A DNA stretch of 63,588 nt, the filler included, from Neolecta irregularis DAH-3 (lineage: Eukaryota), in the NCBI GenBank assembly GCA_001929475.1. It is 7 parts of 7 records of this genome, joined end to end, with 100 filler letters (N's around TTAATTAATTAA, not from the genome) between each part and the next. Parts side by side here need not be neighbours in the genome. Positions count along the whole stretch, not along the records: positions 33,734 to 48,427 come from LXFE01000216.1; 6 more parts are not named here. One strand, written 5' to 3'. Both the position numbers and the translations under genes were made by a program. The notes below the pieces were generated by a model. It searched no databases and was not told the origin of the DNA. It saw only the letters and a list, made by a program, of their open reading frames with translations. This document shows positions 2,305-62,373 of the stretch, in pieces. Each line of letters begins with the position of its first letter. Within the stretch, counting starts at the first letter, position 1.

Positions 2305-2356
2305 CGTTAATGCATTAAAGTTTTGTAATATGTAGTATCCATTCCAATAATCCTAT

Positions 2357-18800: not shown

Positions 18801-20623
18801 CTTCTGCCACCCTCGTTCTCGCGTATTAACAAGCATCTACAAATCGACCCAATTCCTCTTGAACCGCTCGAACTCTCAGGAAAGAAGCAAACAAAGAATG
18901 AAGGTGGATTCATTTCCGCGTTTACGTCATATTTATCAAGTTATGCTGTTGATGAACCACCTGAACCCTCATCGGAAGAAGTTGAATGTACCCTTTGCAC
19001 CAAGGATTGCGTCAATTCTTGTCGACTGGATGAGGTTTCTGGTCATCTCATGTATGAATTTTCGAGATTTAACTTAACATTTTAGATCCTTGGATCTCAA
19101 AAGTACTAAACATCTGCTAAACATTCTACTTCCATATGCAACTACGGATCCCACCCGTAAATTCTTGTCTCAGAAGAGAACAGTTGATGTCAATGGACCA
19201 CTCCCTGTGACTTCTTCTGCCGAAACTAATTATGATGCTTCATTGGTTATGATATTCGAATTCGCAACTTGTCTAGTACTCAGAGATGAACAAAGTCTTG
19301 AGGAACTTGGGTATGTTCTTGTCGTATAATTTTACTTACATGAATAGAAATCCTGTAGTAGAAATGCTTGAAGGAGTTATAAAGAACGCTAATCGAGCCC
19401 ACTGTGTCATGATCGAACGGTGCTTTAGATATTTGATGGCCATCTTTGAAAAGGCCGGGAAAGATGTTAACTTCCTACCAATTTCTCAATTGACATTACC
19501 AGCTTGAACAAGTTTCGATTCTCGACATTTTCGATCACATCTCGAATTGGGAAGTTGAACTCCAAGTTCAGTTATGTTCTACAGTTCTTCCACTACTTCA
19601 AAAAGCGCTCACAATCAATCCGCGACTCGCAGAACATCCATCTGTCTTTATTATTTTGCGAAACCTACTTAAACATCAATCCACCGTCGATGTCGTCTTT
19701 ACACTTGTCAAGGATATTATTGCGAACAATCATGTCTTTCAAACAACTTATGTTCCGCTGGTTGAACTGTTGGATGAAATTACGACGATGGGAGAGATTG
19801 GTGCCAAACGCGAACAGCAGTTAGATACATCCCCACGAAGGAGGAAGTCCGGAAAGGTCAATGATAAGCCGCAAGTCCACACTTTTCCACATATACTGAT
19901 ATACTAGACATGGGAAGGTAATCGACCGAGCCAATCAGGCAGTTGAGCAACTCTACAATCTTCGCTTTCTACTTCCCGCCTGGATTCGATACTCAGAACT
20001 TCCACGCGATGAGGCATGGCACACATTATGGGATCCTCTTTTTGCCTCTCTTTCCAAACAATGTTTAAATCCTTGTCGTGAGGTTCGGTTTCATTCGATG
20101 ACACTTCTTCAGCGGACTCTACTATCTCCAGAACTTCTCGAACCAGAGTCAAATGCTTGGGTTTCAATGTTCGAAGATATTGTTATCTCGCTTGCTTTGG
20201 AAATGATGGAACCTAAACTGTCGAATATTGATCCGCAAGGTGTGGCTGATACGAAAGCACAAATGGTCTCGATTGTGACGAGAACTTTTCTCTGCCACCT
20301 TCACCGACTACCTGAGATGATGCCCGTATGGATGTCGGTAGTGGACACTCTGCACAGGTATGTGAGCAAAGGAAGTCATGTCTGAATCTATCAGGCTGTT
20401 GTTGAGCAGAGAAGGGAATTCTCTTCGAGAGGCCGTTATCGAATCAATAAAAAATGTCCTTCTTGTGATGGCTTCTTCGGGGTATCTGTCTCGGCCTCTT
20501 AGCGGGCAGCCTAATGTAATATGGGATAAAACTTATGAGCGGATCAATATGTTTCTTCCTGGACTTTTAGATGAATTATTCCCCGAGTCAAAGGAGGGAA
20601 CCACTGAAAAGGGAACAACGTAG
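15829..20623 (+). CDS. GEA2: Sec7-domain ARF guanine-nucleotide exchange factor (Gea1/Gea2/GBF1 family)
   Basis: AITHCRFEASDSAQDEVVL, FVNYDC, Sec7 motifs FRLPGEAQQIDRI and VMLNTDQHNPQVK, EIIMPEEH. 12 introns, one of them GC-AG (19871-19907). Confidence 0.92.
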
Positions 20624-28039: not shown

Positions 28040-28084
28040 TTCCTCTCCCTTCAGGAAAATCTAATTTTCCTGAAGGGAGAGGAA
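28040..28084. repeat. Perfect 21-bp inverted repeat with a 3-nt loop
   Basis: TTCCTCTCCCTTCAGGAAAAT-CTA-ATTTTCCTGAAGGGAGAGGAA. Confidence 0.95.
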
Positions 28085-28933: not shown

Positions 28934-31817
28934 CTATTCAATTTCCTCAACTACGACTTCATCATCGTCATCCGATGCGATATCTGTCATATCCTCATCA
29001 TCAACACTTCCTTCCCGACTCAAAACAAAATCATGGTTTGGTTTGATGTATATTCTTCCATTCCGGACCGTAATCTCTGCGGTTTCTCCGTCTCGAATCT
29101 GTCCGCGAAGGATCATAACTGCAAGAGGGTTGAGTATTTCGTTTTGAATAAGTCGATTAAGTGGACGGGCGCCATAGATGGGGCTGTAACCGGCACTTCC
29201 AAGATTATCCTTCGCAGCGTCGTCCATGGTGATGTTTACTGCTCGCTGATTTTCAGCTAGTCGTTTCTGAACTTCCTGAATACGAACTTCGACAATTTTT
29301 CGAATCTCACGTTTGCTGAGTCTGTTAAACAAACAGATTGAGCTAATTCGATTCAGAAATTCGGGCTTGAAGAATTTTCGGATTGATTCCATAACGAGCT
29401 CTTTCGTTTGAGAATCTACCTTGGCAGAGTTCGACAGAGCAAGATACTCAGCGCCGAGATTCGAAGTCATGATAATGACCGCGTTCTTGCAATTGACTAC
29501 TTCGCCTTTTCCGGACGTAAGTCTTCCTTCATCAAGAACTTGAAGAAGAATATTGAGAACCTCCGGAGAAGCTTTCTCAATTTCATCGAACAGAACTACA
29601 CAGTATGGTTTTCGACGTAGCTGCTCGGTGAGTTGACCCCCTTCGTCGTGTCCTATGTAACCAGGTGGTGCACCGATAAGTCTAGATACTGAATGTTTCT
29701 CCATGTATTCCGACATATCGATACGAACCATGGCGCCTGCGTCATCGAATAAGAATTCCGCAAGAGTCTTACATAGAAGTGTCTTTCCAGTACCCGAAGG
29801 ACCCACAAACAATAAGCTTGCGATTGGTTGATTGGAATCTGCCAGACCGGACCTACTTGTTTGCCAAGTCATACGAGAGGCATACACACCTTGAGAGTCG
29901 AATTGAATTTGCAACAGCAGTTACAGCTTCCTTCTGGCCGACAACAGCCCTTCCGAGAACCTGTTCCATGTTTAAAAGTTTATCGATTTCGGTCTGCTTA
30001 AGTCTGGTAACCGGAATACCCGTCCACTTTGCAACAATGTCACAAATCTGATCCGGCCCAACCACGTCAGTGACTAATGGCGTAACTCCTGTAATTTCCA
30101 TTTGGGCGGCTGCCTCTGCATCGATTTGAGATTTCTGCCGTTCGAGAATTTCAATTCGTTTCTGAAGGTCTGGAATGCCGTAGTATGTTAGATCGGCCGC
30201 TGTTTGGAGATCCCCTCGCCGTTCTGCATCGGCAGCTTTGACTCGGAGTTCATCGAGCCGTTTTTTGGCTTTTTGAACTTCGTCGCCTCTTTGTTTTTCA
30301 AGCTCGTACTAGGTTATTAGCCAGAATCATTTGTGATAAGAAAGACGTACTTTCTCTTTCAGTGGGCGAAGTTCTTCCTCTAGGTTGGCTGCTTCCATTT
30401 TTGCAACTTCCAATCGGTCCTTGGAGATTTTATCCTTCTCCCGTTCGAGAGCGTGTATTTCAACCAGGACTCTCCGCAGATTCCTCTCCAAGACATCTAT
30501 CTGTTCCGGCTGACTATCTCTTGCGACTCGAACGCTTGCAGCAGCCTCATCAATCAAATCGATGGCAGAATCTGGAAGTCGTCGTGAGGTAAGATATCTT
30601 CCTGCCAGCTGAGCTGAAGTGACAAGGGCGGCATCTGCAATCGTGACACCATGATGAACTTCGTACTTCTCCTTCAATCCTCGAAGAATCGAGATTGTAT
30701 CCGGGATTGAAGGTTCTTTCACTTGAACTTGTTGGAAACGGCGTTCAAATGCAGCATCTTTCTCAATGAATTTCCGGTATTCTTTGATTGTCGTGGCTCC
30801 GATACAGTGAAGTTTACCTCTCGCAAGAAGAGGTTTAAGGAGATTTGCAGCGTCCATTCCGCCTTCCCCGGAGGCTCCAGCTCCTTGAAATTCAGAGGGA
30901 GAAGTTCATAATATGACATTTACCCATAAGAAGATGCATTTCGTCGACAAATAAAATAATCATATCGCTGGAATTTTCGATTTCCTTCAATACACTCTTG
31001 ATCCGTTCTTCGAATTCGCCGCGATATTTGCTTCCTGCGACTAGAGAACCGATATCAAGACTGAGGAGCTTTGTATTCTGAAGATTCGCGGGAACATCAT
31101 TGTCGACAATTCGCTGAGCAAGTCCTTCAGCAATTGCAGTCTTCCCAACACCGGGTTCGCCAATCAAGACAGGATTGTTCTTAGTTCTAGTAATTTAATT
31201 AACGGCTCTAGTTGATTGTCTTACCTTCTTGAAAGAATTCGGATAACTCTGCGTATCTCATCTTCCCTACCGATTGTGGGGTCCAAAGCACCTTCTCTGG
31301 CTTGAGCGGTAAGGTCGACGGTATATTTACTGAGCGCTTCGAATCCTTCCTCTGCAGATTTTGATTCGACTCTGCGATTTCCGCGCGTTGAGATAATGGA
31401 TTGCTCAAGAGCCTTTGGAGTAACACCAGCCTCAGTTAAAGCTTGTTTGATAATGTTATCTTCAGCGACGGCAGCAATGATGTGATCGACCGCAATAAAT
31501 GAGTCCTTTTGCTGTTTCTGCAGCTCAGCGGCGCGACGTAGAGTTTTCAGTGATGATGGAGAGAGAGCAACGCTTTCTGGTGGAGGGTCTTGTGAGGGTT
31601 GACGAACAAGCTGTTTTTTGATATTTCTTTCGGCGACAAGAGGATCTCCTCCTGCTTTTTGGATAATTGTTTTAAATAAGGAAGACCCGTCGTCGTCATT
31701 CAGTAGACTACACGCGATGTGGACTGGCATTATTTGCGGATGAGCATAGGCGGTCGCCATGTTATGCGACTCCTGGACGACCTTTTCAGCCTTTTCTGTG
31801 AATTTCAAATTATTCAT
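28934..31817 (-). CDS. HSP104: Hsp104 AAA+ disaggregase
   Basis: Clp N-domain, [40 protein letters not shown], acidic C-terminal tail. Four introns. Confidence 0.96.
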
Positions 31818-33545: not shown

Positions 33546-33733
33546 TGTATGGCGGTTTGTTTCCTATATGTGATGCTTCTTCAAAGGTCCCCTTTTGATT
33601 TTCTTGTATTGAATTTGTTGGCAGACCATTAGTNNNNNNNNNNNNNNNNNNNNNNNNNNNNNNNNNNNNNNNNNNNNTTAATTAATTAANNNNNNNNNNN
33701 NNNNNNNNNNNNNNNNNNNNNNNNNNNNNNNNN

Positions 33734-35753
<2,020 letters not shown>

Positions 35754-37882
35754 TTTTGGTTCTCCGTGGTCAGTTACAGAGATGAGTGGTTGGTTTTAGT
35801 AGAGTGGTAAAAACCCCCCAACACTTATTTTCACCAATACTGTCTCACTTGAAAGAAATGCCCTTAATTAACTGTCTTTTGCCACCAATTCGCAAAATAT
35901 CCCTTATCCACTTGATTATTCTTTCTTTTGTTCAAAAGTTGTTTTTAAAGATTGGGTTTTTTAGATTTTCCTCTTTTTAGATTTTGCTGTGGAATGGGTT
36001 GTGATTATTTTCGATGACGGGTTTGATTTTAGCAGGTACCCCGTCGAGTGTTCATATGAATCAAAAGCACTTCTGATTCCCGGCGCTATCTTACATTCCA
36101 AATCTTTAGTCACTACGGGAACAATGCATGTCTGTTGAACTTTGTCTGCTGAATTTTGACGGGTCAGTTACATCGATAACCTCCAGGCGGCTCAATCTCA
36201 TCTTCTGAATGTATCAGCTATTCAATCGAAATGCACATCCGACTTTTCAATTGCAAAGATGTTTTTCCCCTTGTGATGAAAACGTTCGAATAAGCACCGA
36301 GACTAGGAACATTCTTTTAATGATGAGCCATTCATCCCGGCAAAATTGGTTCCGTCGTCTCTTTGCTGTCGCCTGCTGATCTGGAAACACACTTTAAACG
36401 TGCCGTTTACCGGTACCGGCATGCCCCGAGATGCCTAATTTCACAAGATAACAGCTCTGATTCAACTAGCATCTTCTAGCTTCATCATCGTCCCACACTC
36501 GGCGTGTTTCTTGAACTTGAGTCCACGGTACCGCTACCGCTGTGTCGTTTATACTAGTGTTGGATTTAAAGTTTACACAGACAGCTACACTGCTACCACT
36601 CCAAATCTCACAGATTCACGGCTAAAACAGCTTATCTAATAGTTACTGAAACTAAAATCGTTTATAAACTACAAACATTGTCAACTCGCTCGTATCATAA
36701 TACCCAAACAAACTCGATCTTGTTGAATTGCATCAAAAAACATGGCAACGTCCCTTTCATACTTTTTTGGTATTCCTTCAGCACAACTTGAACGCGGCAT
36801 GACTAGACAGATTAAACATATGAATTCAGCACGAATAAAGTTTGACCAATTAGTTGCGTCACATAAATGCGTCTATGCTTGAGTTTTGCACAATCACTAC
36901 ACCGGCTAATACCCCACTTGAAAAATTTGGATGGTTTGTTTGTAGATCAAATAGACTGCTGTGGAAATGGGTATGGAGCAAGTCATATCGTAAATTGGAC
37001 ATGCGTGTTGCAAAGTGATACCGTTCCTGTAAGATATGAGGCTCAAGTTACAGTAAAGATCAGAATATATTTCTAGCTTGAGTTACGAGAAACCTTGGCT
37101 AGGTATTCCGGTTTTCCACCTTATTATATACTTCTTTTAAATGCCGTAAATTTCTGCCGCCTCTTGACTGCATTGGCAAGGATATCCTTACATTGCCTCT
37201 TGATCCGTTAGCGCCGTCTTCACATGTTGCTGCAGACTGTCAACGACTCATCCGTCATTCGTCTATAGGAATGCTGCCAAATAGCGCTGATGTTCCATTC
37301 TATGGAAACCCGCCTGCAACGACGAGCTGGAATTCTCTAAAACTTTATCGATTCAAGTCTAGCGATATTTCAGGCTCCAATGGCTCGCTCTTACATGATA
37401 TTTGAAAGCATGTCCACGTAGATCAGTTTGTAGATTATCTACTGGTAGAACCGCTGCCCGTGAATTCTTACATTCCTTACCTTATGAGAAGCCCGTTTTG
37501 GTACCAATATGAACCTTGATCGCCAAATTTCATTCAGCTCGTCACACCAGGTGAGCCCACGGTCGTAAAGGAACTTATCTGACGTGTAATGCAAACCTAT
37601 GGCCATGGCCTGCTTGTGACACAGTTGTACAAGCGGGATTGCCGATGATCTCACAAACATGTTCAAACCCTGCTTGAAGACGTGACATTGCGCCTGTGAT
37701 TCAAAATTGGGCAGATATATCGCTCAAGTTCTGCTCGAAAGAAATAGAATAAGAATTCAAATCACAACACCGTCTGCCGCAAGGGGATATCCGCGTCTGT
37801 CGAGAATTTTCCTGATTCATAGCCTACGCCGCCGCCACATTGTTGTCTGCCAAAACATTTCCATATTTCAATTCCATTAGCA

Positions 37883-38979
37883 ATGTCTACCACTGGATCT
37901 AACTCAATCGATCTCAATACAGTACTTCAACAATTCTCTAATACAGCAAATTATGTCTCTCTGTTTCATTGTATCAATATTTATACCAGCAGTGTTGACT
38001 TCTAGTCAATTATTATTATTACATACCATCACTTCCTGCGGCTATCATATTCTTCCTTGGCTTTACATTCGTCTTGGCAGCGCTCATAATACAGTCAGTT
38101 CGGCATAAAGTATCCTATTTATATATCATCATCCTTGGAATTCTTGGTATCTCACATTTATTGCCCAAAATCTGAGTTTGAAGGTGAAACAGTAGGTTAT
38201 CTATCGCGAATACTTGGCTCTGGAAATCCATACAGCTATAGCGGCTGGGTCTCACAGTATGCCTTGGTTGTCCTTTGTCCAATTGCTTTTGCTGCTGGTA
38301 ATTACGTTATTTTTGGCCGTCTTTTGCGGATGATTGGTAAGCAGTATTCATTTTTTCCGGCAGAAAAGGTGACAATCGCCTTTGTTGCCAGTGATATTAT
38401 ATGCTTCCTGATTCAAGTTATTGGTGCAGTAATGCTACTAAAGAAAAATGCTAGGTTGAGAAAACCAGGGTTTGAAATCACTTGCTGTTTGCATGTACTG
38501 ACTTTTCGTTAGGAGAGACATACTTCTTTCGGGACTGGTATTGAATGTCATATCCTTCATATTTTTCCTTCTTCTCGTCACTGTTTTTGAGCGTCGAACT
38601 CGAAAATTACCAAGTCGACAAAACTGGATAATGTTAGTCTGGACCCTATACTTTTCAATGTCTCTCATCTTGGTATGCCCTTTCTTGCTTTATCAAATAA
38701 AAGCTGACATCTCGATAGCTACGGGGTATATTTCGGGTAGCTGAGTATTCGATAGGTTTTACGGGATATCTCGCTGTTCACGAGGGTATATTTCCTTCTT
38801 ATTATAAACCTGACAGACTCCTAGTCTTTTGGTATGTCTTTGATGCGCTTCCTATGATTTTTGCCACAGTCGTATGGAGTATTATTCCACCATATCGATA
38901 TCTCGAGCGAATTGATCAGAAACAAGATCTACCAAGTTCAAGGCCAACTAATAATGGGGAAATTGAGACCAAGACTTGA
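37883..38979 (+). CDS. RTA1-like membrane protein
   Basis: YYYIPSLPAA, ETVGYLSR, CPIAFAAGNYVIFGR, FVASDIICFLIQVIG, LRGIFRVAEY...GYLAVHE|VFWYVFDALPM. Five introns. Confidence 0.9.
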
Positions 38980-39468
38980 GATTGTTAACATTGGAAATAT
39001 TTGTATATAATCGGACTCCAGACAATACTGGGAATCCACTTGTGTAATAGCCTGACTTAATTGCCATTACTCAGCCCCTGCATGGGAGCGTTGTGTTATC
39101 TTAACCAAGCCTGGCGTCAAATTTTGTGTATGGTGATTGCATATGCCGATTTACTTGCCTGCTTTGGATGACGTGGGTAGGGCTCGCAGGATTGTGTGCC
39201 GAAATATCTATCGAAGATGTAAGAAATGTCCGATAAAGAAATCTAGCCACATTGGGCTGACTTCGTTACTCTGAATCGGGGTGACAGTTCTCTACTTGGA
39301 GTTTTAATTTGCTTGCTCTCTTTCTAAGGTTAGGCGAAACTATGTAACTAGTAAATTCACATTTCACGATTCATCCTGTTGGTTGATACATACTACTCTT
39401 GATTAATATTTGTACAATTTATGAGTCTAGTTGGGCTGGCATAATATGAGGCTTGTGATCAGTCGCCG

Positions 39469-39489
39469 TAGGGTTAACCCTAACCCTAA
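39469..39489. promoter_or_regulatory. TTAGGG/CCCTAA telomere-like motif cluster about 45 bp upstream of an ATG; possible Tbf1/Teb1-type site
   Basis: TAGGGTTAACCCTAACCCTAA. The regulatory role is inference. Confidence 0.35.
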
Positions 39490-39533
39490 GGCAGGATATT
39501 GATGCACAACCTCCACAAATTTCGAGGACTGTT

Positions 39534-41918
39534 ATGAGTGCTCAAGCTTCAGTATTTTCTCCTCAACCGGCTGTTTGTAAGTTTTATCAATCGTCTACTG
39601 GTAGAATTGCTTACCCCGAATAATCTTATGTCTAGGTTGCAAGCGAGGGAGTGGCTGCACATTTTTACATCCCGCTGAGGGTGAACTCAAAACCCCAACT
39701 CCCAGTCGTGCGAGGGTTGATTCGAAGAAAGATTATCAACGTCAACATTCTCAGAGAGCAGATCAATCGAGAGTTGTTCCAAAACCAGTTCCAAAGTCTA
39801 TACAGCAGGTGCCAAATAGTTTTTAGATTACACTAACGATATCAGAATGATCCAAATTCAGTTCAAGAACATCATCTAGTTCGACTAAAGCGGCGATATC
39901 CCAAGATCGAAGAGAAAAAGTAAGGATTGAGATTATTTCGTTAATAACTGACGTACAAGAGCTGGAGGAAATATTACCCTTCAATTCCAGTTAATTCCAT
40001 CGGACCCTGCTTTACCTTTCGATATATCCCATCTCGATATCATACTTACAGTTCCTTCGAATTATCCAATCTCTTCTTCAGTAATCCATATCAAAAATGC
40101 GGATATACCGAGAGGCTACGCTTTCAATATTGAAAGGGCTTGGAATGAGATCAATGGAGATTTTCTGACAAAGACAAAAGAATTAGATAGGCGTCTTGAG
40201 GAATTTTTGAGCATGGGGAAAGTTGAGACCGTTAAAATTGTGAAGCCGAAGCAAATCAAATCTGAAGTGCTCTCAAAGGTCGAAATACAAAGACGTTCTC
40301 AATCAGAATTTACAGCAGAACAAATTGCAATAGCAAAGGTTCACCTGGACCAGGAAATTTCTCAGCTACAGGCTCGGCTCAGGGATCTAAAGGTGATCAG
40401 GTGTGACGACTACTGAATGAAACTAATGAAAGGTCCGTTAATGATTCTACGACTTACGAGGTATTAATAAGGCCATTAAAAACAACTGGACTTCCAGAAG
40501 AACTCCAGAGGACTGTTCCCATCCACCTCTTTATTCCTTCCTTATATCCGCTACAGTTGCCCGATCTAAAAATCCCTTCTTCCACTTCCACATATGCTAG
40601 AAATGTCGAACGTGAATTCATCCCATTGGTCAACGAACATAAGGAAAAATCATTATTTTCGATTCTGAACATCTTACAAATAAGGTTCTGCGATTTGGCT
40701 ATGACGGAAAGAAGCTACCAAGCTCTTCCTTTCTTAGATAATTTGAAAAGCATCGAAATCTCGAAACATGAAGACTTCAAATATGATCCAAACCAAATCT
40801 ATGCAATTCCTCCTATTCACGGAGAGTCGGATGAGACAATAAATGACAAGAGATCTGAGCCTAATTTTGAAGACACTACAGAAGCAGAGAACGCAATAGA
40901 CATGTCTCTTATAGATCAAGAGGTTTTGTCCGTCAAGAAAATTGTACCAGCAGTCGAAAGAGGCATATCTATATCGTTTCCAAACATCCATCTGTCCAAC
41001 ATCTCTCTTCTTGAGACATATTCGTTATCGCTTATGATAAATTGTGCCCGATGTAAAGCTGTTATGGAAGTGCCCAGGATTCTTCGGTCTCTCCCTTCAA
41101 AGATTTTGCAATGTCAAACCTGTTCCTCAAACATCTCAGTTGCATTCCGTCCAGGTAGTATCACCTGTGCGATCCCCCTGACGATCAGTCATTCTCCACC
41201 AACACGAGAGGAAGATCGGCTACTTGGATCTAGCAGGTGCCTCACCTCAACAACTTCTTCCATCTTCATTTCAATCGACATGCACTGAATGCGGAACGCA
41301 GACTGCTCCATATACGATCTCACCAGCACAAATATTGACACAGATTTGTAGGAAATGCCATGCCCGGATGGACATAAAAATTGACTCCATCAAATTCTTA
41401 AAGATTGGTGTTCCTGGCAAGGCCTTGTATACCTCTTATCCTGACTGATATTTCAAGGTGTATATATAGATAACCCCAACACAGGAGGGAAGAAAATTAT
41501 CAAACAGAATATCGGCATTAGTATAGGAAAACCACTGCCAGATTTCGGTCATTGTACTCATTACAAGAAATCGAGTCGATGGTTTCGGTATATATTTATT
41601 CTGGGCGACTGATTTCTAAGGTTCGAAGATTTCCTTGTTGTTTGAAGGTCTATGCATGCAGTAAATGCCATGATGCATTATCAGACCATCCATTTGAATT
41701 TGCAACTCGTCAAATATGTGGATATTGTTCGAAGGAGCAAATATACTCTCAGAATAAGGCTTGTGTAAATTGCGGAACACAGTAGGAACTTCTTGCTGAG
41801 AATATTTTGATCGTGTAGTCCGATTAAAAAGACCACCCCGTTTTGGGAGGGCGGCGATGGGCTCCGGGACAAAGTCCGCATGTCGAGAAAGGATAAGCGG
41901 AAATTTAAGAAAGGCTGA
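39534..41918 (+). CDS. CCCH-zinc-finger / CHY-zinc-finger protein
   Basis: N-terminal CKFYQSSTG|CKRGSGCTFLH, PSDPALPFD, CxxC pairs, CHY motif CTHYKKSSRWFR|FPCCLKVYACSKCHD, C-terminal FWEGGDGLRDKVRMSRKDKRK. Eight introns. Confidence 0.88.
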
Positions 41919-42150
41919 TCAAGCTCCACCAGTTGTATTGTTGAACTAATCGATGACGCGATTGTTATATATCTAGAACCTATCAAGACGCCTGTGATAG
42001 TCATTCACCCATTCATGGCTGATGGGTTTTTGGATCATTAAAAATTCCTCAGCTCTGAATCAATAGAGCAGGGCCAGGATTGACAAAGATTTAAATACCC
42101 GAATTCAGTGTGTCCACCCCAGACAAATCAAGCAAGTCTGGCAGACAAAC

Positions 42151-42238
42151 CTTGGCAAGTAAGCAAGTCAAAACCGTAGACTTGCTTGATTGGACTTGAT
42201 AGACTTGATAGTTTAAACTTTTAAATATTTTCTTAATA
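42151..42238 (+). repeat. Diverged copy of the AAGT/GACTT transposon-end family
   Basis: Similar to 48330-48427. Confidence 0.6.
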
Positions 42239-42923
42239 CCTCTACCAAATATTGTCTGCATTGTCCCAGGATACATTATCATATTGAAATGTCAATTCCA
42301 ATCATTAATATGGATTCCAGAATATCTCAGGATCTTACCAAAGCAAATTTTTCAATTTTTGAAGACCAGACCAGTGTTGGCAACAATATAAACGGAACGG
42401 TATTGGACCCTAACCCTAACCCTATCACCCTAAACCCGATTTCCAAACCGTTTCAGATACAATTTGGATTTCATTACTATCCTCGAGATTTATTGGAAAT
42501 CCTCAATGTATTTTGTGAATTCTTTCTTGTTATAACAGGAATTTACTGTAGAAAATACAATTATAAAGAATTGTTTACTTATTCTTCATTACCCACCTTC
42601 GCCCAGTTTGAATATTCAAATTGTTGAAAATGGGTTCAAAGTCGATTGTAGACCATCACTTTGGGTTCGCAATAACGATGGACAACTCATAGAAAACTCA
42701 GGACGGTCTTTTTGAGCTTGGGCCATAGCTGACGCCAGCTCGCTGAAATCTCAAGTCATGGACGAAAACTAAGATTGCATGGTCTGGAGCTTAGTCCTAC
42801 AGGATGCCGAAGGGTCAAATTCATATTTTTAGAATGACGCACATCACATTTTAATTATAGACCTCTACTGTTTCAGTTTTCTCGACGAACTGAACCATTA
42901 AATAAGCAAAATGCTCAAAAGAT

Positions 42924-43443
42924 TCAAAGAGCAAGAACTGCCAAGTCGACCTGAGCACTAACACTTGCGGAAATATCAACTTTTGCGTCCAGAACCTTGC
43001 CATCTGCAACTACACAAGCTTTAATGTCCGCGGCGATTTCGAGGATTAATTGTTCATGAATTTCAAGTTCGATCCCGGCCTGTGGCCTCTGATTCCAATA
43101 ATGTTTGACACAACCACACTTTCCAAGATAAAGAGCAACTTTTGCTTCAATCAAATTTTTCAGATAAAGATCGACATCGATATCGAGATCAACATTTATG
43201 CCGAGAAATCTCTAGAATATTAAACAAACAATTTTGAAGATTCATGCCTTATCCATTCCGCTAAGTGATCTTTTCGAGTCAACACTGACCCGGTCTCTCA
43301 GCCAGTGACCACCGTCTCCGCCATTCACAGCAACGGCGACAGGGCTACTAAAAACTGTCGACTTGAGCTAAACCGCTGCAATGAGGAGAGATACCAACAG
43401 GGACAGAAAACAAAAATACCAGATTGAGGAGACTTGATTTCAT
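42924..43443 (-). CDS. Secreted hypothetical protein with Kex2 (KR) sites
   Basis: Signal peptide MKSSLLNLVFLFSVPV|VFSSP, then DSKR and MDK|RFLGINVDLDIDVDL. One GT-AG intron and one GC-AG intron (43212-43247). Confidence 0.7.
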
Positions 43444-44632
43444 TTTGAATGTATTGGAGAAGTTGGAGAGAATTGCAGAGATTGAATTGGATGACGAAGA
43501 TTCGAGGGTACCCAAGCAATTTATAGATTTTACTAGTGAAATAATATCTTGTGCACTGATTCGGTTATGCAAGTTGCTTCACTTGTTCGTTACGGGATGT
43601 CTCGGCCAAACTCAAAAGGAGTACGAGTAGAACTCCCCAATGATACAAAATGCACGTTGGCGGTTCGAGAACATGAATAAATGTAACGTGGCTGTAATAC
43701 AAGTGTGTCTGATTGATCAGCGCTTTCGCGATATTGCATATTGAAATGATCATAGGGTTAGCCTAACCCACCTTGACATTATGAAAGTTCACAAGTAATG
43801 ATTCTTTCATGTTGACGAACACAGTATATAACTAAAGCTTCATCATTGCAGGGATCTGGATGGATGAATGAAGTCGTATTGTTCTTAGAAACTCTGTACT
43901 ACGGGAATCGATGGTATACGCCTAGATAATTAGTTCAGATCGGACGATCATCATACAAGTCTTTTGATTGCTACCGTTGTAAAGATATCAAAGTCTAGAA
44001 TTCGCCGAATTTGACTAAGGATGCACCAGACTGCTTTATCAAAGACTACGTTCTTGACGACCATAGACTCAGGGTCATTCATTCTTGTGAAGCATCATGT
44101 GGATTTGGTTTAATTTGTGTCATTCGGTTCTTGCCGATCGGCTTCTGATGCAATTCGTCAATTTCCAATTTCACTTTTCCAGGCTAGCCCTAGGATCAAG
44201 GACCATCTAGGTTTATTTTTTCTACTAATGGAGGCTAAGATACTGATGTCACCATTCAACAATCGTTTCTCAGGGAGTGGGATTGGTCGGCTGGTAAGAG
44301 TCGAAATGTTTAGAAATGAACAAGCTAGGGAGGGATATAGTCTATTCGAGAGAAACGAGGGAACAAATAAAGAATTTGCCAGAAAATAATGTAGGCACTT
44401 TTAATAGTAGTTCTCAAGATGCTGCAGTCTCTACTTTGTACTCAGAAAAAGGAGTCACAGCTGATTTCTCTAAATATCCAGGCTCGGTTTCAACACCTCA
44501 AGAATTTGGTTGAAACTAGCAATCATCAACCGCGTTTGATATTGGGATGGTCCATTTGCATTTCACGAACTTGCGCTGGGTAAGAGAGGCACCGATTCTG
44601 CGTGCGCGCTTCTTGCACATGGCAGACTCGAC

Positions 44633-45230
44633 CAGTGTGGCCAACCACCCGACGGATGGCACCCGGTGGGCCGCCGGCTGGATTAGTAATCCACCCACCC
44701 ACCTACCGGAGACAGTGGAAGTAACCGATACCGGTTCTCTCTCATCAACACCTACAATTGCAGTCCAGCAACTCGGCCAAGATGCACTTATTCAGATCCA
44801 TCCAGGCGGCATCCGGTATATCCGCGCTGACGGAAAAATGGTCGACTGGAAAACTCCAGCTCAATAAACTATCCAACAAGCTACCAAGAATCAAAGACAA
44901 GTCGCGATCTCATTGAGCAGTGGAAAATTAATATACTTTGAATTGGACAGCGCAGAGTTACAAGAATATCGGGAACGGAAAACTGACGCCATCATTGCAT
45001 TGAGCATTGGCGAAGTTCCAGAAGGAAGAGCAAGGAATAACTTGATGGTTTATTGATCCGAGAACGATGTTGATTCTCAGGCTGTTGCGTGAGAATCAGT
45101 ACTGTTCGAACCATTTCTCTAGATCCTTCGAGCACTCTTGATTCTTTTAGCATACAAGCTCTCAGTGCACCTGCAAGCTCACTCGTAATCATGGTGATAG
45201 GTGGGGTCGGTCGGGTGGTTGGCCACACTG
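44633..45230. mobile_element. Non-autonomous hAT-type DNA transposon carrying a captured host gene fragment (Pack-type)
   Basis: Perfect 21-bp TIRs CAGTGTGGCCAACCACCCGAC (44633-44653 and 45210-45230). 8-bp TSD GACTCGAC/AACTCGAC with one mismatch. Confidence 0.9.
44708..45195 (+). pseudogene. RSE1: Decayed internal fragment of splicing factor RSE1/SF3B3/Prp12
   Basis: [90 protein letters not shown]. Premature stop at 44865-44867, frameshifts, and a retained 33-nt intron at 45048-45080. Confidence 0.88.
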
Positions 45231-45884
45231 AACTCGACTGCAACCCTTCTCTCAGTAACCCTGTGCCCAACCGAAATAATCCCTAAGGTCAAACAACTGC
45301 GGATACAGCTAGATTGAAGATATTGCTAGTGTACGACCTTGAAACGAGGTATATATTCCACAAGGTCGTCTCAGTTGCACGGTATGAAATCTGATATTGT
45401 GTTTATTTCTCAATGATTCTTTTTTAATTGCTATCGTGATCTATGTATTCTAAACAGATACTCAGAGATGTATAGATTGATAACTTGAACTCTTCATAAT
45501 CAGCCCAAAATGAGAAAAGGTAAATTAGTTATAATAAAGACCGGTCATTGTGCATAGAATATCATCTTCATTGTGAGATTAAAATGTCATAGTTTCTCCG
45601 CAGTTAAGGGAGTATATATATAACTAAGATTGAAAGAGTTCATTCTCGAAGTATGATTCAAAAAGTTTATCGTTGTAAGAGTGCGCTGATGATGAAGAAC
45701 GCAAGGACCTTCAATTGACAGGAAAATGTTGTTAGACAGACATAGAAAAGTGACTTAACAACTTTCTCAAGCTCATTGCAAAATACCCGAACAATCTTCT
45801 TTTTAGGCTTGTTGTCTTCACATGAACTTAAATTTATTCTTCGCATGTGCTGTCATTCTATCGAATGCAAGGATTTGATGATAG

Positions 45885-47826
45885 TCATTCGCATTGCTCC
45901 AACAAGCGAGCTTCAACAATATCAGCCCAAACAACTTCCTCAATTCCCTCCATCGAAAGATCTTCCTCGCCCGTCTCAAATCTTCCCAGTATTCTCTCGC
46001 CAGTTTCCGGGTTATACTCTCGTTTGGGAATGTCTCGCTTTGCTAGTCGCACCATGACAGAGCCAGGTTGTTCATCCACTCTAATTACGCGGCCGGTTTT
46101 CCAAGTAGAGAGTCTTGGTTCGTATTGGGGCGTCATAGTCAAGTGTTTAAAGACCACGATCGAATTTACCTTGGGAAGAGCTGCTTGGAGTCGAAGGGTT
46201 GTCGGATCGGAGGGAAGAGGTGGAAAATCTTCGAACTGGTCACCAGAGTGGTGTAATTCATCAGAGAAGGTATTAGTAGTTGCAAATTCATCTATAGTTG
46301 CAATTCGTCGCCGAAATGGGAAGGTTGGGATGTTGACTTGAACATTTGGATCTCCGCATTCAATTGCTCGAATACTGCAGCGAGACTTCCAATCTCCCAC
46401 TGCACTCGATCTATCTGCATAGACAGGATTACTGAAGTTTTCAAAATTTATGCTTTTTGAAGTGGTAAATGTTTCCGTAGGCTTTGACGTAGTTGAATCA
46501 CTTGTCTTCAACAGCTCCCCAGTCTCAGTCTCTAGCCTTTTTGTTTTTCGAAGATTCCTTGTTTTTTGTCTGGTTCGAAAAGCCTCTTTTGCAAATGTCC
46601 AATCTTTTGTCACTGGCTCGGCAGCAGGAGTGATTTCGATTCGTGATGGAGGAGGTGGAAATCTTTGGCTATTGGGGATACTGTTTGATATAAACCTGGT
46701 AATAGCCGGTATATCGGGTATCAAAGTCCCTATCAGTCAGATGATATCTGAAACAATTGGCCTGAGGTACGTTGTTCGGGGTCAACATGAGCCTGTTCCA
46801 TCACTACATCGTTTGACGATAAATCTTGTTGATTCTTATTCAAACGCTCGGCATCTTCCCATGATCCATCCTTAGGAATCATACCCTCGCTCTTGAACTT
46901 TTGAAGCAATCTGGATTTTTTCTTTCGTAGATTCCGACTTTTAGTTTGAGGCTTGCCATGACCAGGTGGTATGTATGTTACTTTCGGGGGGGAAAGTTGT
47001 ATTTCTTCATCTTCATCATCGCCATCAGAGGAAGAAATGGATGATGAAGAAGTTGAGGATTCGGACGATGACGAAATTTCCTTTAAATATTCCTGTGTGT
47101 AATGAGATTTCTCTTGTGCAGCTAATTCCGAACCGGCCGCTGAATCAGAAGACTCACTTTCTTCTGAGCTTGACTCTGCCGACTCAAGATTTCTTTCCGT
47201 AGGGGGAGACTGAGATTTTGATGGAACAGATCTCTCGCTTTTATTTACCTTTAATTTCTTCAAGACACGTCCCTCATCAACCTCTTCATCTTCAGACAAT
47301 GAGGGGTTTCCGCTTTCCTCTCCTTTCTGTCTCTTCGGAATCTCGATTCCATTTCCAAAATTGGAGCGACGACCGTCCGTCCCGGTTGCTCTTATACAAC
47401 GGCCAGAGAAACCATCTTCTCTAGAAAGTCAGTTGTGTCTCGAAACAGATCGCAACACTTCTAGTATCTTGATTTCCCCATTTCTAGAGAGTGTAGATAC
47501 TGAGCCATCGAAGCCTGGGCGCCGCCTTTTCCGTTGTGGTCCAGGAATGTTACACATCTTTGCTCTAGCATGTCGGTTCTTGTCCCGAGCCTAGAGTATT
47601 ACGATACCAAATCTCCATCTCTTATGACACCTTCCACAATCGAATCTCGGAGCAAATCAAAACCATCAACTTGTAGAGACACATGGAAATTTCCGTCAAT
47701 CTGCTTTCGAAGGTATGATGCTATCCGACTCTCCAAATCTGCAATGGGAAATAACTTCAGATCAGAGACTTCCAGCCAGAACTTGATAATCGGAAGTGGG
47801 AGCTGTGTTGAGACACGTATCCGCAT
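45885..47826 (-). CDS. Coilin-like (Mug174-like) protein
   Basis: Ubiquitin-like N-terminus MRIRVST..LP...LQVDGFDLL.DS..GVIRDGDLV, Ser/Glu-rich middle, PPGHGKPQTKSRNLRKK motif, IRAIEC...PFRR, Tudor-like C-terminus. Two introns. Confidence 0.7.
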
Positions 47827-48241
47827 GGGAAAGTAGACGACTTCGGAGATGTAAAAACAGGCAGAAGGGTAAAGTTCAACACGTGAAATATAAATTTGAT
47901 TTGACGATGTCAAATTCCTGAAGGTCTGTTGCATCACTGACGCAACTTTCATTTATGAACCCAGGGACAGAAATAGAGGAACCGAGACGGCTGGGATAAT
48001 GAAATTTCTGGAGGAATGATGAGAACTAAAACTTGGACAAAGGAACAAGATGGGAACAAGGAATACAGAGGCCGGGCGCTATATTTTTCAAACATGCGTT
48101 AACAGCGTATGTATATTACATGTAACACGCAGGATGCAGTTGTAGAGCTTTTTATACTTTAACTTGAATAAAAACCCCGAAAAAAACGGTTGTTCGATTC
48201 CTTTGCTGAATGAATGAAACAGTATTCACCAGTCCTACAAG

Positions 48242-48427
48242 CAGACTGGCTAATAAGTAAAACTTTCAAGTAGAATTTACTTACTTACTTGCTTTGTAAG
48301 CAAGTAAGTAAGTCCGGTGGACAAAAATTAGTAAGTAAGCAAGTCCAAAAACCTAGACTTACTTGTTTGGACTTGATAGACTTGACTGTTTAAGACTTTT
48401 AATGAGACATTGAATATTTTCTTAATA
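48242..48427 (+). mobile_element. AAGT/GACTT transposon end (terminus CAGACT), cut by gap
   Basis: Matches the reverse complement of 11706-11854. Confidence 0.7.
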
Positions 48428-48813
48428 NNNNNNNNNNNNNNNNNNNNNNNNNNNNNNNNNNNNNNNNNNNNTTAATTAATTAANNNNNNNNNNNNNNNNN
48501 NNNNNNNNNNNNNNNNNNNNNNNNNNNGATCGACGGCCGGGGAGCAGCAGCCATGGCGGTGCGGCGGCGGCGGCGGACGGCAAGGTCATATCTAGCGAGC
48601 AGATGCGATTCTAGGCGGGCCGAGGCGCGCTAGAACCGTTCTGCGGCTTCAGCCACCGCAGCCACTCCCGCATTAAGCGAGTTTTACGCTCCCAACCCCA
48701 CAACCCGCCCCTCGCCCAGGCCCGTGAGATGCCGGGCATGCACTCGATATCCCTGATATCTCATGGATAACTCATGCTATTGTACTCCGCAACATTACTC
48801 GTTTATGCACCAA

Positions 48814-56358: not shown

Positions 56359-57973
56359 NNNNNNNNNNNNNNNNNNNNNNNNNNNNNNNNNNNNNNNNNN
56401 NNTTAATTAATTAANNNNNNNNNNNNNNNNNNNNNNNNNNNNNNNNNNNNNNNNNNNNGGCGGGTCCAGTTCAGGGGCAGGGGCGAGCCGTTGTAGTCGG
56501 TCTTGGAGGCGCGGACGGAGAGGCAAACGGGATGCGGCAAGGCAGCTAGCTGCAGGCTGGTGGACGAGGCAGGAGGGACTCGCGGGACAGGTGAGGCGGG
56601 AGGGGAGAGGAGACAAAGTCGCGGGGGCTGGAGGTGGAGGAGAGAGAATTGACCCCTGACACTGAGTTCTCATACCACATCATGAAAGGCACGTTGGAAC
56701 CCAAAGGAATGGTATTTCTTCGACATTGGGCAGCTGGTCGCTTAGAACTGGCGGCTGGAGGTGCTTGTGCAGAGGATACAAAGAGGATGTGTGGCGAGGA
56801 CAGCAGGTGAGTGCGGTGTCAAAGAGCAGAGTGCAGTGGAAGGTAATAGGTGCGGCGTAATGCAGGCTCAGACTCGTCCTCCACCTCTCACTCGTCTCCA
56901 TCTACCTGTCCCTGCTCGATGCCCCGCCCCAGCAGCAGTACTTTGTCCCGCTCACAGAGTCCTCATCCTTGGGAGCCCTGCCTCTGAAGGCTATCTCGTC
57001 TGCCGCCCGCCCGATGTCGCCTTCAGGCTCTCCCTGGATCTCATCCGCTGTCCCAGCACTCCCTTGCCTCTTCCACTGCCACACAAAGTCCCGCGCTTCC
57101 TGTCTCGACTTGGACCCTTTGCACCAGAACCATGCTGTGTCCAGATGCTCGTCTTTGCCATAGTTGCATTGTGGGCACTCCGTCCTCATGTTTAGGATTT
57201 GCTTCTCTCCGGCCCTGGCTTGCTCGCATCCTCCTTGTATACCTCTTTGGCTCAAAGTGGGAGATTCGCCACTGCTCCTTCCTCCAGCTTCGGCTACTAC
57301 ATCGCAGACATCATTGTCATCCCAATCTGCGAAAGCGCTACCCAGACCCTTGCAGCTTGCTTTACACACCTCAACCTGGTCTCCATCAAACTCTCCTACA
57401 CAGATGTCATTGATGTGTGTATTGCTAAGGATGCAAATATGCAGAATTGGGGATATAATAAGATGTATGTATCCTTTTACCAATAAGGCTAATATATTAG
57501 AGGGTTTGGCGGCATGGATTCTTTATGAGTGAAGGGAATTAACATCCCTGATGCGATCTCTGAACAGTGCAACTGTAATAGTGAATTTTCAATATGTCAT
57601 TAATGTCATAGGCATGGTGTGCTATACTCAAATGGATCTTGTCCCAGAAATTCAGAGCGAGCAGATGGGGATATGGTTAGTTGTGGTGGGCAAGGTGGCG
57701 GAGGAGTGCAGCCAGGCCAGGGAATGCAGCGACGCAGGTGAGGCATTAGGGGGCAGCCGCCTGGTGCTGACAGAGATGCCCAATAAATTCAACTGTCATA
57801 ATAGAAAATGGGAATATGGTCTTATGTTGGTCAAGTTTGTCTTTTTGGTTTAATGTTTGGAATATCAAACTACTTTACATTTCCCCACTTGTTTAAGCTC
57901 CCTCTTTTCTCGTCATACTTTGCTACCTGGCAGACCATCCTATTCTTGCTGCAATCTTGTCGAAGCAGTTGCA

Positions 57974-60900
57974 ATGGAAACCGTTGAACCTACTGTACCA
58001 TTGAACACATGGACACAAATATTTACTTTTCTTCCCGAATTCGGAGTCCTTATCTGTCTTGAGCACCACTGTGCCATTCGCCTGTCGAGTCTAGATCGTC
58101 ATATCAGCGCTGAACATAGTATCTTCAGGAAGGAAAAGAAGCTCCTTCTCAAAGAGCTATCCCATCTTGAGATCAGGAATCCTATTGATGTAGTTCACCC
58201 GGGAAGAATTACAAGTGTTATTAAGGAATTGAATATTGTTAGTAAGAATGCATTTCAATGCTTGGTAGAAGAATGTAACTACTGTTGTTTAGGATTGAAA
58301 AAGATGCAATCCCACTGCCGATCAGAACACCAGTGGAAGCATGAGCTGAATCCAAATCCGATATGGGAAGCAGCGCATTTGCAAACGTTTTTTACACACA
58401 AAAGCTATATCAAATATTTTCGTGTTGCTATCACTGAGAGCAGAGTCATCGATAGTGTATCAATAAATGACAGAACCCTTCAAGCCTTTAGAGAGTCGCA
58501 AACGCTTCTTGTTAAATGCCATACATCAATCCAACCGATAGAACATAAGTCTGAGAATACGCCATGGATGACAAAGACTGGCTATCGCGAATATCTACAA
58601 GGTCTTCCCTGTGTTGATATTATCAAGTCCTATCAACTCCCAAAAGGAAAAAATAATGAAACCTGTTTGGAAGGTGTTTGCAAGAGCCTGGATCGAATAC
58701 TCAATAAGGCGCTCAAGTCAGCAACAAATGAAAGAGGTAATGGGCATCTTACATTAGCAAATGCGCGAATTCTTAATACCTTCCAATCTGGGACACTAAG
58801 TCAAAAACCGTTTAAAGCATTACAAAACCAAGAAATGGCAAAATCCTATTTTAGTGTATGGAAAAAGCTGATTTACTATATTTACCGGATACACTATAAT
58901 AATGCCTTTCCAGAGATCACCATATTCAAACTCACAACTCAACAATTAAGTCATATTAATACATCATTTTCCCAACTGAATAATGAAGAAAGCTTGGATA
59001 ATTCCTGTCTATCAATGAGTTACAGTCTTATTGAACATCCTCTCGAGTTTGATTCATTCGAATCTCCGATTATCAGTTTTTCTGCGGCACTCTGTCTCAA
59101 TTCAACTGGTAGCAGCTTTCTTGAACCACATCATTTTACACCATTTCTTTCGAGATTAATATACTGCATACAACTTATTACTCTTGAATATAATCTTGTT
59201 AATTATGAAATAAACAAGGAAGATAATCAGTCATTTCAAAATTATTTTAAAATCGCATGCGACAAATGGATTCTGAATACAACAGTAGGACCTATGTCAG
59301 AACTTTTAAGTACAAGATTATATGGAATGGAAATTGGTCGGAACACTATTGCACCAATGACGACTTATTGGGACGAAGCTAGGGAAGTAGTGACATACCG
59401 ATCTACAGAGCTAGCGATATCAGACCTCCGGCGGTTTATGAAAGAACAATTATTTGTGGCAAAACAAATATTATATGAAAAACTACTATTTTTCTATAAT
59501 CCTGAATTGAAGTTCAATTTTTCAGGTATTTTGCTATTTATTATAACAAAGATTAATATTCTAGTTATTAAAGATGACTTTGGACAAAAAAACGTCGGGG
59601 AATCATTTTTAACCAACAAATGCAATGGATTTGAAGGATCTGGCGAATGGTTATTCCAGGCTATCCTCAATGATCAAAAACTACTTAATACAATGGCAGA
59701 TTGTATTACTGATGGTAACCTTGTATGGAAGCTACATATTATCCTGCAATACGAACATCAAATCCAGAGCTTTCTCAATCACTTGCTTATTCTTATTCAC
59801 ATGGGATCTGGTTAACCAGGCAGGGGTGCAGAAATCCTTGGTACAAGATATTGTAATACACATGAAAGAAGAAATTTGTTTATTCACGATGGCTTAGTTA
59901 TGTTTGCAATGCCATATCACAAATCGCAAGCAGTAACAAATACATCAAGGTATGTTAATCTAAAACTATAATATATTTATACTAATATTATTGTAGATTT
60001 GTTTGTTGCTTTTTACCTGAGGAGGTTGGGATTTTGCTCGTTACATATCAAAGTCTAATCCTACCATTTCGAAACTATTTGAATAATGAATCAATTGGGA
60101 AAGACTGCTCCTCTGCATTTATTTGGACTACTCAATCTGGCATTTGGGAAACCGATTATATGACAACATTATTAAAGAAACAGACAGAAGCATCTAAACT
60201 TCAATCTCTAACAGTTTCCACATGGCGCCATATTGCCTCAGCTATTCTGAAAGAAAAGTTTATGGGCCTGAATCTCCAATTGGATTACGAAAATGACGAT
60301 GATTTCAATAAAGAAACAAATTCATTTGCATTTCTGCAGGCTTCGCATACAGCTAGGATGAGCAATATTCATTATTCCAATACCCTTGAGTTTGATGGGC
60401 AATTAACAGCTGGTGCACTTCTGGAATACCGAAAAGTTAGCAAAGCTTGGCATACTTTTCTGCATTTTGGAACCAATACAATATTGAACTCAAATAAGCG
60501 GATACAAGACATTTTAGAAGAAAGAGAAAACCCACCACTAAAGAAGGTTTTATTAGAACCTCAGTGGGTAACTCGCCAAAAATTAGGTCGTCGAACTATT
60601 TGGTCAGCTGAGGAAGTCGATATCGCGCTTTGTAAGCTATACGGAAAAGATTCCAACTTCAAGTCATATGGACAGAAGCAAGCATTAATGGAAATTGTAT
60701 CTGGAACAAGCCAGATTATCGTGATTCTTCCTACTGCTGGTGGAAAAAGCTTGTTATTTATACTTCCATCAGTTTTGCACGGTTCTGGAACTACAATTCT
60801 TATATTACCACTAGTCGCACTTCGCCAGGATATGGAAAGACGATTGAAAGAACTCGAGATTCCCTATGCATTTTGGTCACATGAGCAACAATACACTTCA

Positions 60901-61137
60901 TCACTTATTATCGTAACTATTGAACAAGCCTCGACAGATTCTTTCAAATCATATTTATTAAAGCTCAGTAGTCAAAATCAACTCGACAGGATCGTTATGG
61001 ATGAATGCCACTTAATCTTCACTGCAAGTGATTACAGACCAAGTATAGGGCTTTTAAAGGAGCTACGGATACTGAAATGCCAATTCCTATTTCTATCTGC
61101 AACATTTCCACCATCAATGGAAGATGATTTTAATCGG
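57974..61137 (+). mobile_element. DUF3505-like zinc finger / tyrosine-recombinase-like / RecQ helicase fusion (telomere-linked-helicase-like); one nonsense codon, 3' end in gap
   Basis: VLICLEHHCAI..RHISAEH, CLVEECNY..HCRSEH, TPWMTKTGY; HMGSG*PGRGAE, YHKS, TWRHIASA, QASHT..IHY; Walker A PTAGGKS, ILPLVAL, DECH, LSAT. Introns at 59526-59564 and 59950-59996. Confidence 0.75.
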
Positions 61138-61799
61138 NNNNNNNNNNNNNNNNNNNNNNNNNNNNNNNNNNNNNNNNNNNNTTAATTAATTAANNNNNNN
61201 NNNNNNNNNNNNNNNNNNNNNNNNNNNNNNNNNNNNNAAGAGTAACAACGGTAACATCCTCACCGCCAACCCACTTATTTCCATGTCCATCTTCCCAAAT
61301 CCCGTCTTCAAAATCGGTAGCGGTCATTGCGCACGCACGACAACGAACTTTAGAATCAAAACCCAAATCGAATTTTAAGCGCGCGTTTGATGAGCTCCAT
61401 ATTTTATAACATTTGGCTCGCCCGTCTTGCCCACACACTCCCTGTTGCGGCCCTGCCTATCACTGCCGCTGTCTACCTTCGTGGGTCCTGCGAGGGTGTC
61501 TGCATCACCGCCTGCTGGGCACCGCTGTAGTAGGCGGTGAGATGCAAGTGATACTGAACAACTGCTTCACGAAGCTGTTGGGCTTGTATGCCAGGCTGGC
61601 ATTATGGCTGTCGGAGTCTGGCGAGCCCCTTGCACGGTGGCCCTCCATCTCGTGGTAGGAAGTTGCTGCTGACCCTGCTCCAGCTGTTCCCATCACATAC
61701 CTTGCTACCCCTGCTGTAAGAGTGTCCTCGCTGCCACCAGCCGCTACACTGCATATTCCCCGACAAAGGGTACTGCCGCCTGCTTCGTCAGACAACCTG

Positions 61800-62273: not shown

Positions 62274-62373
62274 NNNNNNNNNNNNNNNNNNNNNNNNNNN
62301 NNNNNNNNNNNNNNNNNTTAATTAATTAANNNNNNNNNNNNNNNNNNNNNNNNNNNNNNNNNNNNNNNNNNNN

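Follow-up and report, generated by a model that had tools for sequence, protein, structure and literature searches.

A Small Non-autonomous Transposon, Probably of the hAT Superfamily, With a Captured RSE1/SF3B3 Fragment in Neolecta irregularis

The capture of host gene sequence by DNA transposons with terminal inverted repeats (TIRs) has been described in plants and in fungi. Pack-hAT elements were described in maize (Gisby and Catoni, 2022; PMC8903248), in an article whose main text does not contain the word "fungi", and the Pack-MULEs of rice and Arabidopsis (cited in PMC3538342) carry gene fragments that were captured between inverted repeats and amplified. In Pyrenophora tritici-repentis, histone H3 was found inside hAT elements of 5.6 and 2.3 kb, a case presented as the first transduplication in a fungus (PMC3538342). 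H3 transduplication by hAT elements is likewise described for Pseudocercospora fijiensis and its relatives, the elements of P. fijiensis measuring about 9.5 kb and having an inverted repeat of 20 bp and a duplication of 8 bp (PMC6710886). Here, we describe a 598-bp unit (positions 44633-45230) in a 63,588-nucleotide stretch of DNA from Neolecta irregularis DAH-3 (assembly GCA_001929475.1), the whole of which is referred to as the window. This unit is bounded by perfect 21-nt TIRs and its interior is a decayed fragment of the spliceosomal gene RSE1/SF3B3. In our reading, to which we give a probability of about 75%, it represents a single member of an old and multicopy family of non-autonomous cut-and-paste elements, most likely hAT, with the size of MITEs (miniature inverted-repeat transposable elements), in which a 492-bp piece of RSE1 was captured as DNA and then spread.

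The element shares with the maize Pack-hATs the non-autonomous, TIR-bounded structure, the 8-nt target duplication and a host-gene interior apparently copied as DNA, with an intron retained in the Neolecta cargo. It differs from them in belonging to the Taphrinomycotina, in its much smaller size of 598 bp with a backbone of 106 bp, in carrying one fragment of one gene and in that a small repeat family arose from the form that bears the cargo. With the fungal H3 elements it has in common an inverted repeat of about 20 bp, the 8-bp duplication and a housekeeping gene that was captured, amplified and decayed; however, those elements, as described in the two articles, measure 2.3-9.9 kb, encode a hAT transposase domain and hold the whole H3 gene, with decay through RIP (repeat-induced point mutation) in P. 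fijiensis, whereas the Neolecta element has no transposase, holds a 492-bp internal gene fragment with an intron and shows no RIP-like bias. The view that such capture is best known in plants, taken by the initial annotation of this DNA, overstates the novelty of the locus, as hAT transduplication has been published for Pezizomycotina (PMC3538342, PMC6710886).

For the Pack-MULEs as for the Neolecta element, it has been suggested, mostly without proof, that the parent gene is affected in its regulation. The inverted repeats of Mutator-like elements are long and their duplications measure 9-11 bp, and the features of the Neolecta element fit hAT better. In the Ds-type derivatives of Ac that contain filler DNA, and in hAT MITEs, the short ends of the autonomous element are kept, gap repair removes or replaces what lies between them, and the elements move in trans. 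The Neolecta element resembles the Ds-type derivatives in its short ends and replaced interior, and its anatomy, together with a sister form holding 10 nt in place of the cargo, suggests a comparable mechanism.

Ends, Cargo and Intron of the Element

The locus is present in two public sequencing runs of one study, here X1 and X2, the contigs of which were aligned to the window at 80% likeness. The features of the element are as follows.

44619-44867 (+): public gene model P0056, 82 aa, which starts in the flank, runs through the TIR and ends at the TAA of the cargo
44625-44632 (no strand): left target-site duplication GACTCGAC, 7 of its 8 bases as in 45231-45238
44633-44653 (+): left TIR CAGTGTGGCCAACCACCCGAC, supported by pattern counts and shuffles and by an X2 contig with another flank, whose match begins at exactly 44633
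44654-44707 (+): left subterminal backbone, rich in G and C; the inverted repeat inside it (44663-44685 / 44687-44709) is imperfect
44708-45047 (+): cargo piece 1, SF3B3, corresponding to human residues 488-606 by protein matches, with TAA at 44865-44867
45048-45080 (+): relic intron, a 33-nt GT..AG insert, recognized as an insertion relative to the protein
45081-45199 (+): cargo piece 2, SF3B3, corresponding to human residues 607-645 by protein matches, with a net 1-nt frameshift
45200-45230 (-): right backbone, comprising 10 nt of subterminal sequence and the 21-nt right TIR (45210-45230); the cargo-less form resumes at 45200
45231-45238 (no strand): right target-site duplication AACTCGAC, which pairs with GACTCGAC

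Recomputation reproduced the coordinates and counts given by the initial annotation, namely the 598-bp unit, the perfect 21-bp TIRs and a flanking repeat matching at 7 of 8 bases, the uninterrupted identical part of which is the 7-nt ACTCGAC. The two TIRs are exact reverse complements of each other and give the unit the termini CAGTG...CACTG. Allowing up to 3 mismatches, the 21-nt pattern occurs at these two sites only in the window and had no match in 100 shuffles; likewise, the longest perfect inverted repeat within 3 kb did not exceed 17 nt in 100 block shuffles, and the window contains two of 21 nt, one of which is the TIR pair of the element. Both junctions are covered without differences by contigs from the two runs. 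The backbone amounts to 106 bp, of which 75 bp lie left and 31 bp right of the cargo, with the 21-nt repeat at each end, and its left part is common to the cargo-less form up to 44707 and to forms with other interiors up to 44699. Folding of the left subterminal hairpin was no better than that of shuffled sequence (z -0.33; 76 of 200 shuffles folded equally well). All six frames of the unit are interrupted by stops, and SF3B3 is the sole recognizable coding similarity. The unit displays the descriptive traits of a MITE: a length below about 800 bp, inverted repeats, a target duplication, non-coding sequence, multiple copies and related short forms.

The cargo extends from 44708 to 45199 (492 bp), limits that were set because a contig of the cargo-less form joins 44707 to 45200. 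The read-through translation of 44634-45047 (TAA taken as X) matches residues 488-603 of human SF3B3 (E 3.3e-29), as well as SF3B3 of Chaetomium (5.5e-27) and yeast Rse1 (0.002), and a second frame, 45083-45208, matches residues 632-663 of the Chaetomium protein (E 1.1e-4) and 612-647 of the human one, so that the cargo overall corresponds to human residues 488-647. The first piece also matches Pfam PF23726, the second beta-propeller of RSE1/DDB1/CPSF1 (8.9e-08). Among full-length proteins the best hit was the fungal SF3B3 P0003 (59-62% identity), with 59% over 123 aa for piece 1 and 69% for piece 2; a tblastn search of the window with P0003 detected no further RSE1-like sequence. The source of the interior is therefore a host gene unrelated to transposons, and there is no transposase frame between the TIRs, which are two of the traits of Pack-type elements.

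The copy present in the window is dead cargo: it contains an in-frame stop (TAA, 44865-44867), a net 1-nt frameshift in the interval 45081-45098, and a splice donor that has been weakened, as position +5 of the 5' splice site of the insert is A at 45052 (GTTTAT) and G in four X1 contigs (GTTTGT). Small indels at 45086-45113 distinguish other copies from that of the window. The decayed SF3B3 interior of about 490 bp reported by the initial annotation is in consequence borne out in size, identity and condition.

The 33 nt at 45048-45080 run from GT to AG, and nothing in the SF3B3 protein corresponds to them. An X2 contig lacks exactly these positions (the shorter side of the joint has 58 letters) and represents either spliced RNA or an intron-less DNA copy, the kind of library of X2 not being on record; under both readings the 33 nt behave as a removable unit, that is, an intron. 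This genome has very short introns: when 31 GT..AG gaps of the window that restore an open frame were taken as candidates, the commonest length was 37 nt, with five cases at 29853-29889 (-), 16734-16770 (+), 19311-19347 (+), 20358-20394 (+) and 35231-35267 (-). The first of these was verified, as the exons on its two sides match a single solved chain of Hsp104 at residues 318-454 and 457-759. An intron of 33 nt is unusual for most fungi and normal for this genome, a point in favour of an origin of the cargo within this host lineage. Since the insert behaves as an intron, the fragment was presumably copied as DNA, and the proposal of capture at the DNA level, with the GT-AG intron retained, is supported by the insertion relative to the protein, by the local introns of about 37 nt and by the X2 contig that skips the 33 nt. 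A full-length RSE1 of N. irregularis was not present among 53 protein-search hits, nor was an intact parent locus seen. An introner-type reading, in which the element itself becomes an intron, was also considered and was rejected because local introns measure about 37 nt and the element 598 bp.

Elsewhere in the window, a 52-nt GC-rich palindromic unit at 12771-12822 has a right end on the minus strand, CAGTGCGTCCAACCGCCCGCC, that agrees with the TIR of the element at 17 of 21 positions; it possesses an 18-nt inverted partner 17 nt away and no flanking direct repeat was seen around it. A related TIR family may have left this unit as a remnant, or the unit may be a mini-member of such a family. 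The sole other perfect 21-nt inverted repeat of the window forms a hairpin at 28040-28084, TTCCTCTCCCTTCAGGAAAAT cta ATTTTCCTGAAGGGAGAGGAA, with 21-nt arms and a 3-nt loop, about 850 bp past the 3' end of the Hsp104/78 gene.

Copies, Sister Forms and Public Gene Models

In run X1, which may be the source of the assembly, the summed contig depth, a quantity that is not a true copy number, was 362.7 and 385.3 in the flank bins and 1561-7663 inside the unit (about 4-21 times the flanks). The 53 X1 contigs comprise 22 that are at least 99% alike to the window copy, 7 at 95-99%, 14 at 90-95% and 10 below 90%, and at position 44910 six variant contigs account for 3714.8 of a depth of 4139.6. It is clear that several distinct copies are present, in the order of ten, which have diverged by about 5-20%.

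Contigs of X1 and X2 also contain a cargo-less form, in which 44707 is joined to 45200 by the 10 nt AAAGTGTATG (the shorter side of the joint has 29 letters), which amounts to a sister element of about 116 bp. There are also contigs that depart from the left end after 44699, or join the right end at 45200, and have unrelated interiors. In addition, 204 unrelated letters adjoin 44633 exactly in an X2 contig and another contig departs at 45235. The same ends with varied interiors, together with the change of flank at 44633, indicate that the TIR marks the boundary of a mobile unit and that the ends are common to a family.

These flank changes, the variant contigs and the excess depth, as well as the related protein models P0066 and P0072 located on other contigs, indicate that the cargo-bearing form was mobilized after capture, as had been suggested from the combination of perfect TIRs and decayed cargo. 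The ends are multicopy and the interior is SF3B3, so that neither of the outcomes named beforehand as contrary to this view (a single-copy TIR, an interior of other origin) was found. An exact scan of metagenome contigs for the 21-nt repeat gave 0 hits.

The copies have left traces in the protein databases. Model P0056 (82 aa) is 100% identical to the window, is present in NCBI, UniRef, nr and EukProt, and is interpreted here as a false gene prediction over the element. Among 5.8 billion proteins, the two most closely related to it are both named "Pre-mRNA-splicing factor rse1 [Neolecta irregularis DAH-3]": P0066 (132 aa, 69-82% identical) and P0072 (66 aa, 71% identical). These two are further decayed copies of the SF3B3 fragment, both with internal deletions; by hand translation, QEYQEQKQMT and RQKYCQAPAQ of P0066/P0072 correspond to the loose contig ends at 44930 and 44825. 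The residues IRYI, PAQ, QQAT and LQEY are common to the copies and missing in full-length SF3B3 proteins, consistent with one capture followed by spread.

Superfamily, Origin and Possible Function

It is quite probable that the unit is a non-autonomous TIR transposon in which RSE1 DNA was transduplicated and which multiplied once the capture had taken place, and its membership in the hAT superfamily, although somewhat less secure, is rather likely. This assignment is drawn from the length of the flanking repeat and the YARNG termini. hAT transposases prefer the target nTnnnnAn, and GACTCGAC, the one site available, has A at position 7 and lacks T at position 2. Target duplications of 8 bp and YARNG termini are typical of hAT (PMC3014272); CAGTG fits YARNG and the TIR is short (21 nt), and the 8-bp duplication (PMC3014272, PMC6710886) is present with 7 of 8 bases at one copy. 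Of the Pack-type hAT proposed by the initial annotation, the TIR-bounded non-autonomous element with an SF3B3 interior is therefore retained, and the hAT label is kept as a probable one that depends on one 7/8 repeat and the CAGTG termini. An alternative that appears unlikely is that the cargo was captured by a TIR element of another superfamily with duplications of 7-8 bp, such as P, Mutator-like or Zisupton/KDZ. The perfect flanking repeat of only 7 nt, the half-met target preference and the lack of a hAT transposase among the window frames scanned would suit it, but the termini and the 8-bp duplication characteristic of hAT speak against it (PMC3014272), and so does the short TIR when compared with the long repeats of most Mutator-like elements.

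With regard to origin, a 492-bp stretch of host RSE1/SF3B3, intron included, would have been copied as DNA into the 106-bp backbone, probably through a template switch to an ectopic template during the repair of an excision gap. Pack-type elements and hAT derivatives with a replaced interior usually originate by template switching in gap repair, and this route fits the present case because the sister form has 10 nt at the same two break points. A transposase encoded elsewhere would bind the 21-nt repeats and short subterminal sequence, excise the unit and reinsert it with an 8-bp duplication; the chimaera would have been mobilized in trans in this way, leaving several copies that subsequently decayed. 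RIP was considered as the main cause of decay and rejected: transitions make up 48 of the 83 places of change among X1 contigs (58%), and no excess of C-to-T or G-to-A was seen in either direction.

Several observations weigh against this account of a mobile hAT-like family. The 7-bp ACTCGAC can be read as the target duplication equally well, and the duplication is readable at one copy only, which is the sole copy read end to end. A transposase domain was not detected in 52 distinct open reading frames (ORFs) scanned in the window, and by comparison with work on Ac/Ds a right backbone of 31 nt may be short for transposase binding. Contigs identical to the window copy have depths of 424.9 and 544.1, near that of a single copy, and thus give no sign of recent movement; an empty site was not seen either, both runs in which the locus occurs carrying the insertion. 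Finally, the terminal bins, after correction for their flank part, are about 5 times the flanks and the cargo bins 7-21 times, and P0066 and some contigs carry SF3B3 homology upstream of 44708 (LILSIGE...), so that not every copy of the fragment need share the same TIR frame. Some copies may lie in a longer element, be free pseudogenes or be the parent gene itself.

This last group of data bears on the possibility that a larger, perhaps autonomous element captured a longer segment of RSE1 and that the 598-bp unit is a later derivative of it by internal deletion. The homology in P0066 reaches about 34 residues upstream of the left limit of the cargo, contigs of both X1 and X2 extend the SF3B3 homology in the same direction, reading ...LILSIGETVE before 44718, the cargo bins are deeper than the terminal ones, and hAT elements with histone H3 in Pyrenophora and Pseudocercospora provide a published precedent (PMC3538342, PMC6710886). 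Nevertheless, the upstream-extended sequences may equally represent a free pseudogene or the parent gene, a large element was not seen, and the identical break points of the cargo-less form (44707/45200) tie the 598-bp form directly to the backbone of about 116 bp. Derivation from a larger element is hence a tentative alternative, and direct capture into the small backbone is preferred. It is scarcely credible, on the other hand, that TIRs and flanking repeats surround an ordinary RSE1 pseudogene by chance or through an assembly artefact: even though one copy alone can be read end to end, the 21-nt perfect repeat exceeds all 100 shuffles (maximum 17), both junctions are covered without differences in contigs from two runs, and other contigs switch flank exactly at 44633 or show the same ends with other interiors.

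A further proposal concerns function, namely that the family was kept because its sense or antisense, possibly spliced, RNAs feed silencing or tune a gene of the U2 small nuclear ribonucleoprotein (U2 snRNP), or because it donates exons. The X2 contig lacking exactly the 33-nt insert would be spliced RNA if X2 is an RNA library, another X2 contig crosses the left junction (44489-44780), and the flank cover in X2 is patchy and transcript-like by eye, although its uncovered parts do not count as evidence. Against this, the three readable copies are broken in different ways (stop and frameshift in the window copy, internal deletions in P0066 and P0072), the copies have diverged by 5-20%, and changes at codon positions 1, 2 and 3 number 9, 4 and 12 (chi-square about 3.9, 2 d.f., not significant), as counted over the 25 exon-1 sites among the 40 listed of 89 variable sites. 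Maintenance for a function is accordingly very unlikely. Equally little weight, or slightly less, is given to the more specific idea that about ten transcribed, spliceable fragments of the essential RSE1/SF3B3 gene yield antisense or small RNAs, or a splicing decoy, with an effect on the parent gene or on the machinery of splicing; if true, a mobile element would be coupled to spliceosome dosage in a short-intron, intron-rich fungus. The element most likely has no cellular function, and its visible effect is the seeding of short false "rse1" gene models.

Genomic Surroundings and Significance

The window consists of seven contigs (11396, 22137, 14694, 7831, 4679, 1036 and 1215 bp) joined by spacers made of 44 N, TTAATTAATTAA and 44 N at 11397-11496, 33634-33733, 48428-48527, 56359-56458, 61138-61237 and 62274-62373; these are artificial and neighbourhood across a spacer is therefore not genomic linkage. 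The part that bears the element is 33734-48427 (14,694 bp), where the unit is intergenic, about 650 bp past the 3' end of a coilin-Tudor-like gene. The GC content of the window is 43.5%, and the published N. irregularis assembly has 44% GC, 14.5 Mb and an N50 of 16 kb (PMC5309816). Window genes include fungal housekeeping genes such as those for Tra1, a Sec7 exchange factor, a kinesin, Hsp104/78, DGAT and GCD14.

Within the scanned interval 44000-45900 no known RNA family was found inside the element, and the sole RNA-family hit is a full-length sub-threshold match to the C/D-box small nucleolar RNA SNOR75 (RF02539) at 44308-44388 (+), about 245 bp upstream of the element, with 29.9 bits against a gathering value of 50 (E 0.0025) and boxes that are unconvincing by eye. 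Similar small hairpins on CAAGCAAGTCT / AGACTTGCTTG occur at 11764-11800 and 42121-42196, on two different contigs, and may constitute another short repeat family. On the 4.7-kb contig, an OrsD domain (PF12013, E 6e-10) is encoded by an open frame of 653 aa at 57854-59815 (+), which is followed by a DEAD/ResIII helicase frame at 59986-61137 (+) that reaches the contig end, an arrangement that looks repeat- or mobile-element-like.

The literature search found no paper on Neolecta transposons, on the 21-nt repeat or on a captured SF3B3 fragment, and a full-text search with the first 12 nt of the TIR returned unrelated papers only. The main text of the N. irregularis genome paper does not contain "transpos" or "intron", and its supplements may bear on the subject (PMC5309816). 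In one survey very few DNA transposons were reported for Taphrinomycotina, Neolecta being outside that survey (PMC5751038).

The element described here, if correctly interpreted, adds the Taphrinomycotina to the lineages in which small TIR transposons capture gene fragments. In the public databases, at least three short models (82, 132 and 66 aa) would represent decayed transposon cargo and not splicing genes. The occurrence in one small genome of cargo-bearing forms, of cargo-less forms with the same break points and of forms with other interiors makes this family good material for studies on how such chimaeras originate.

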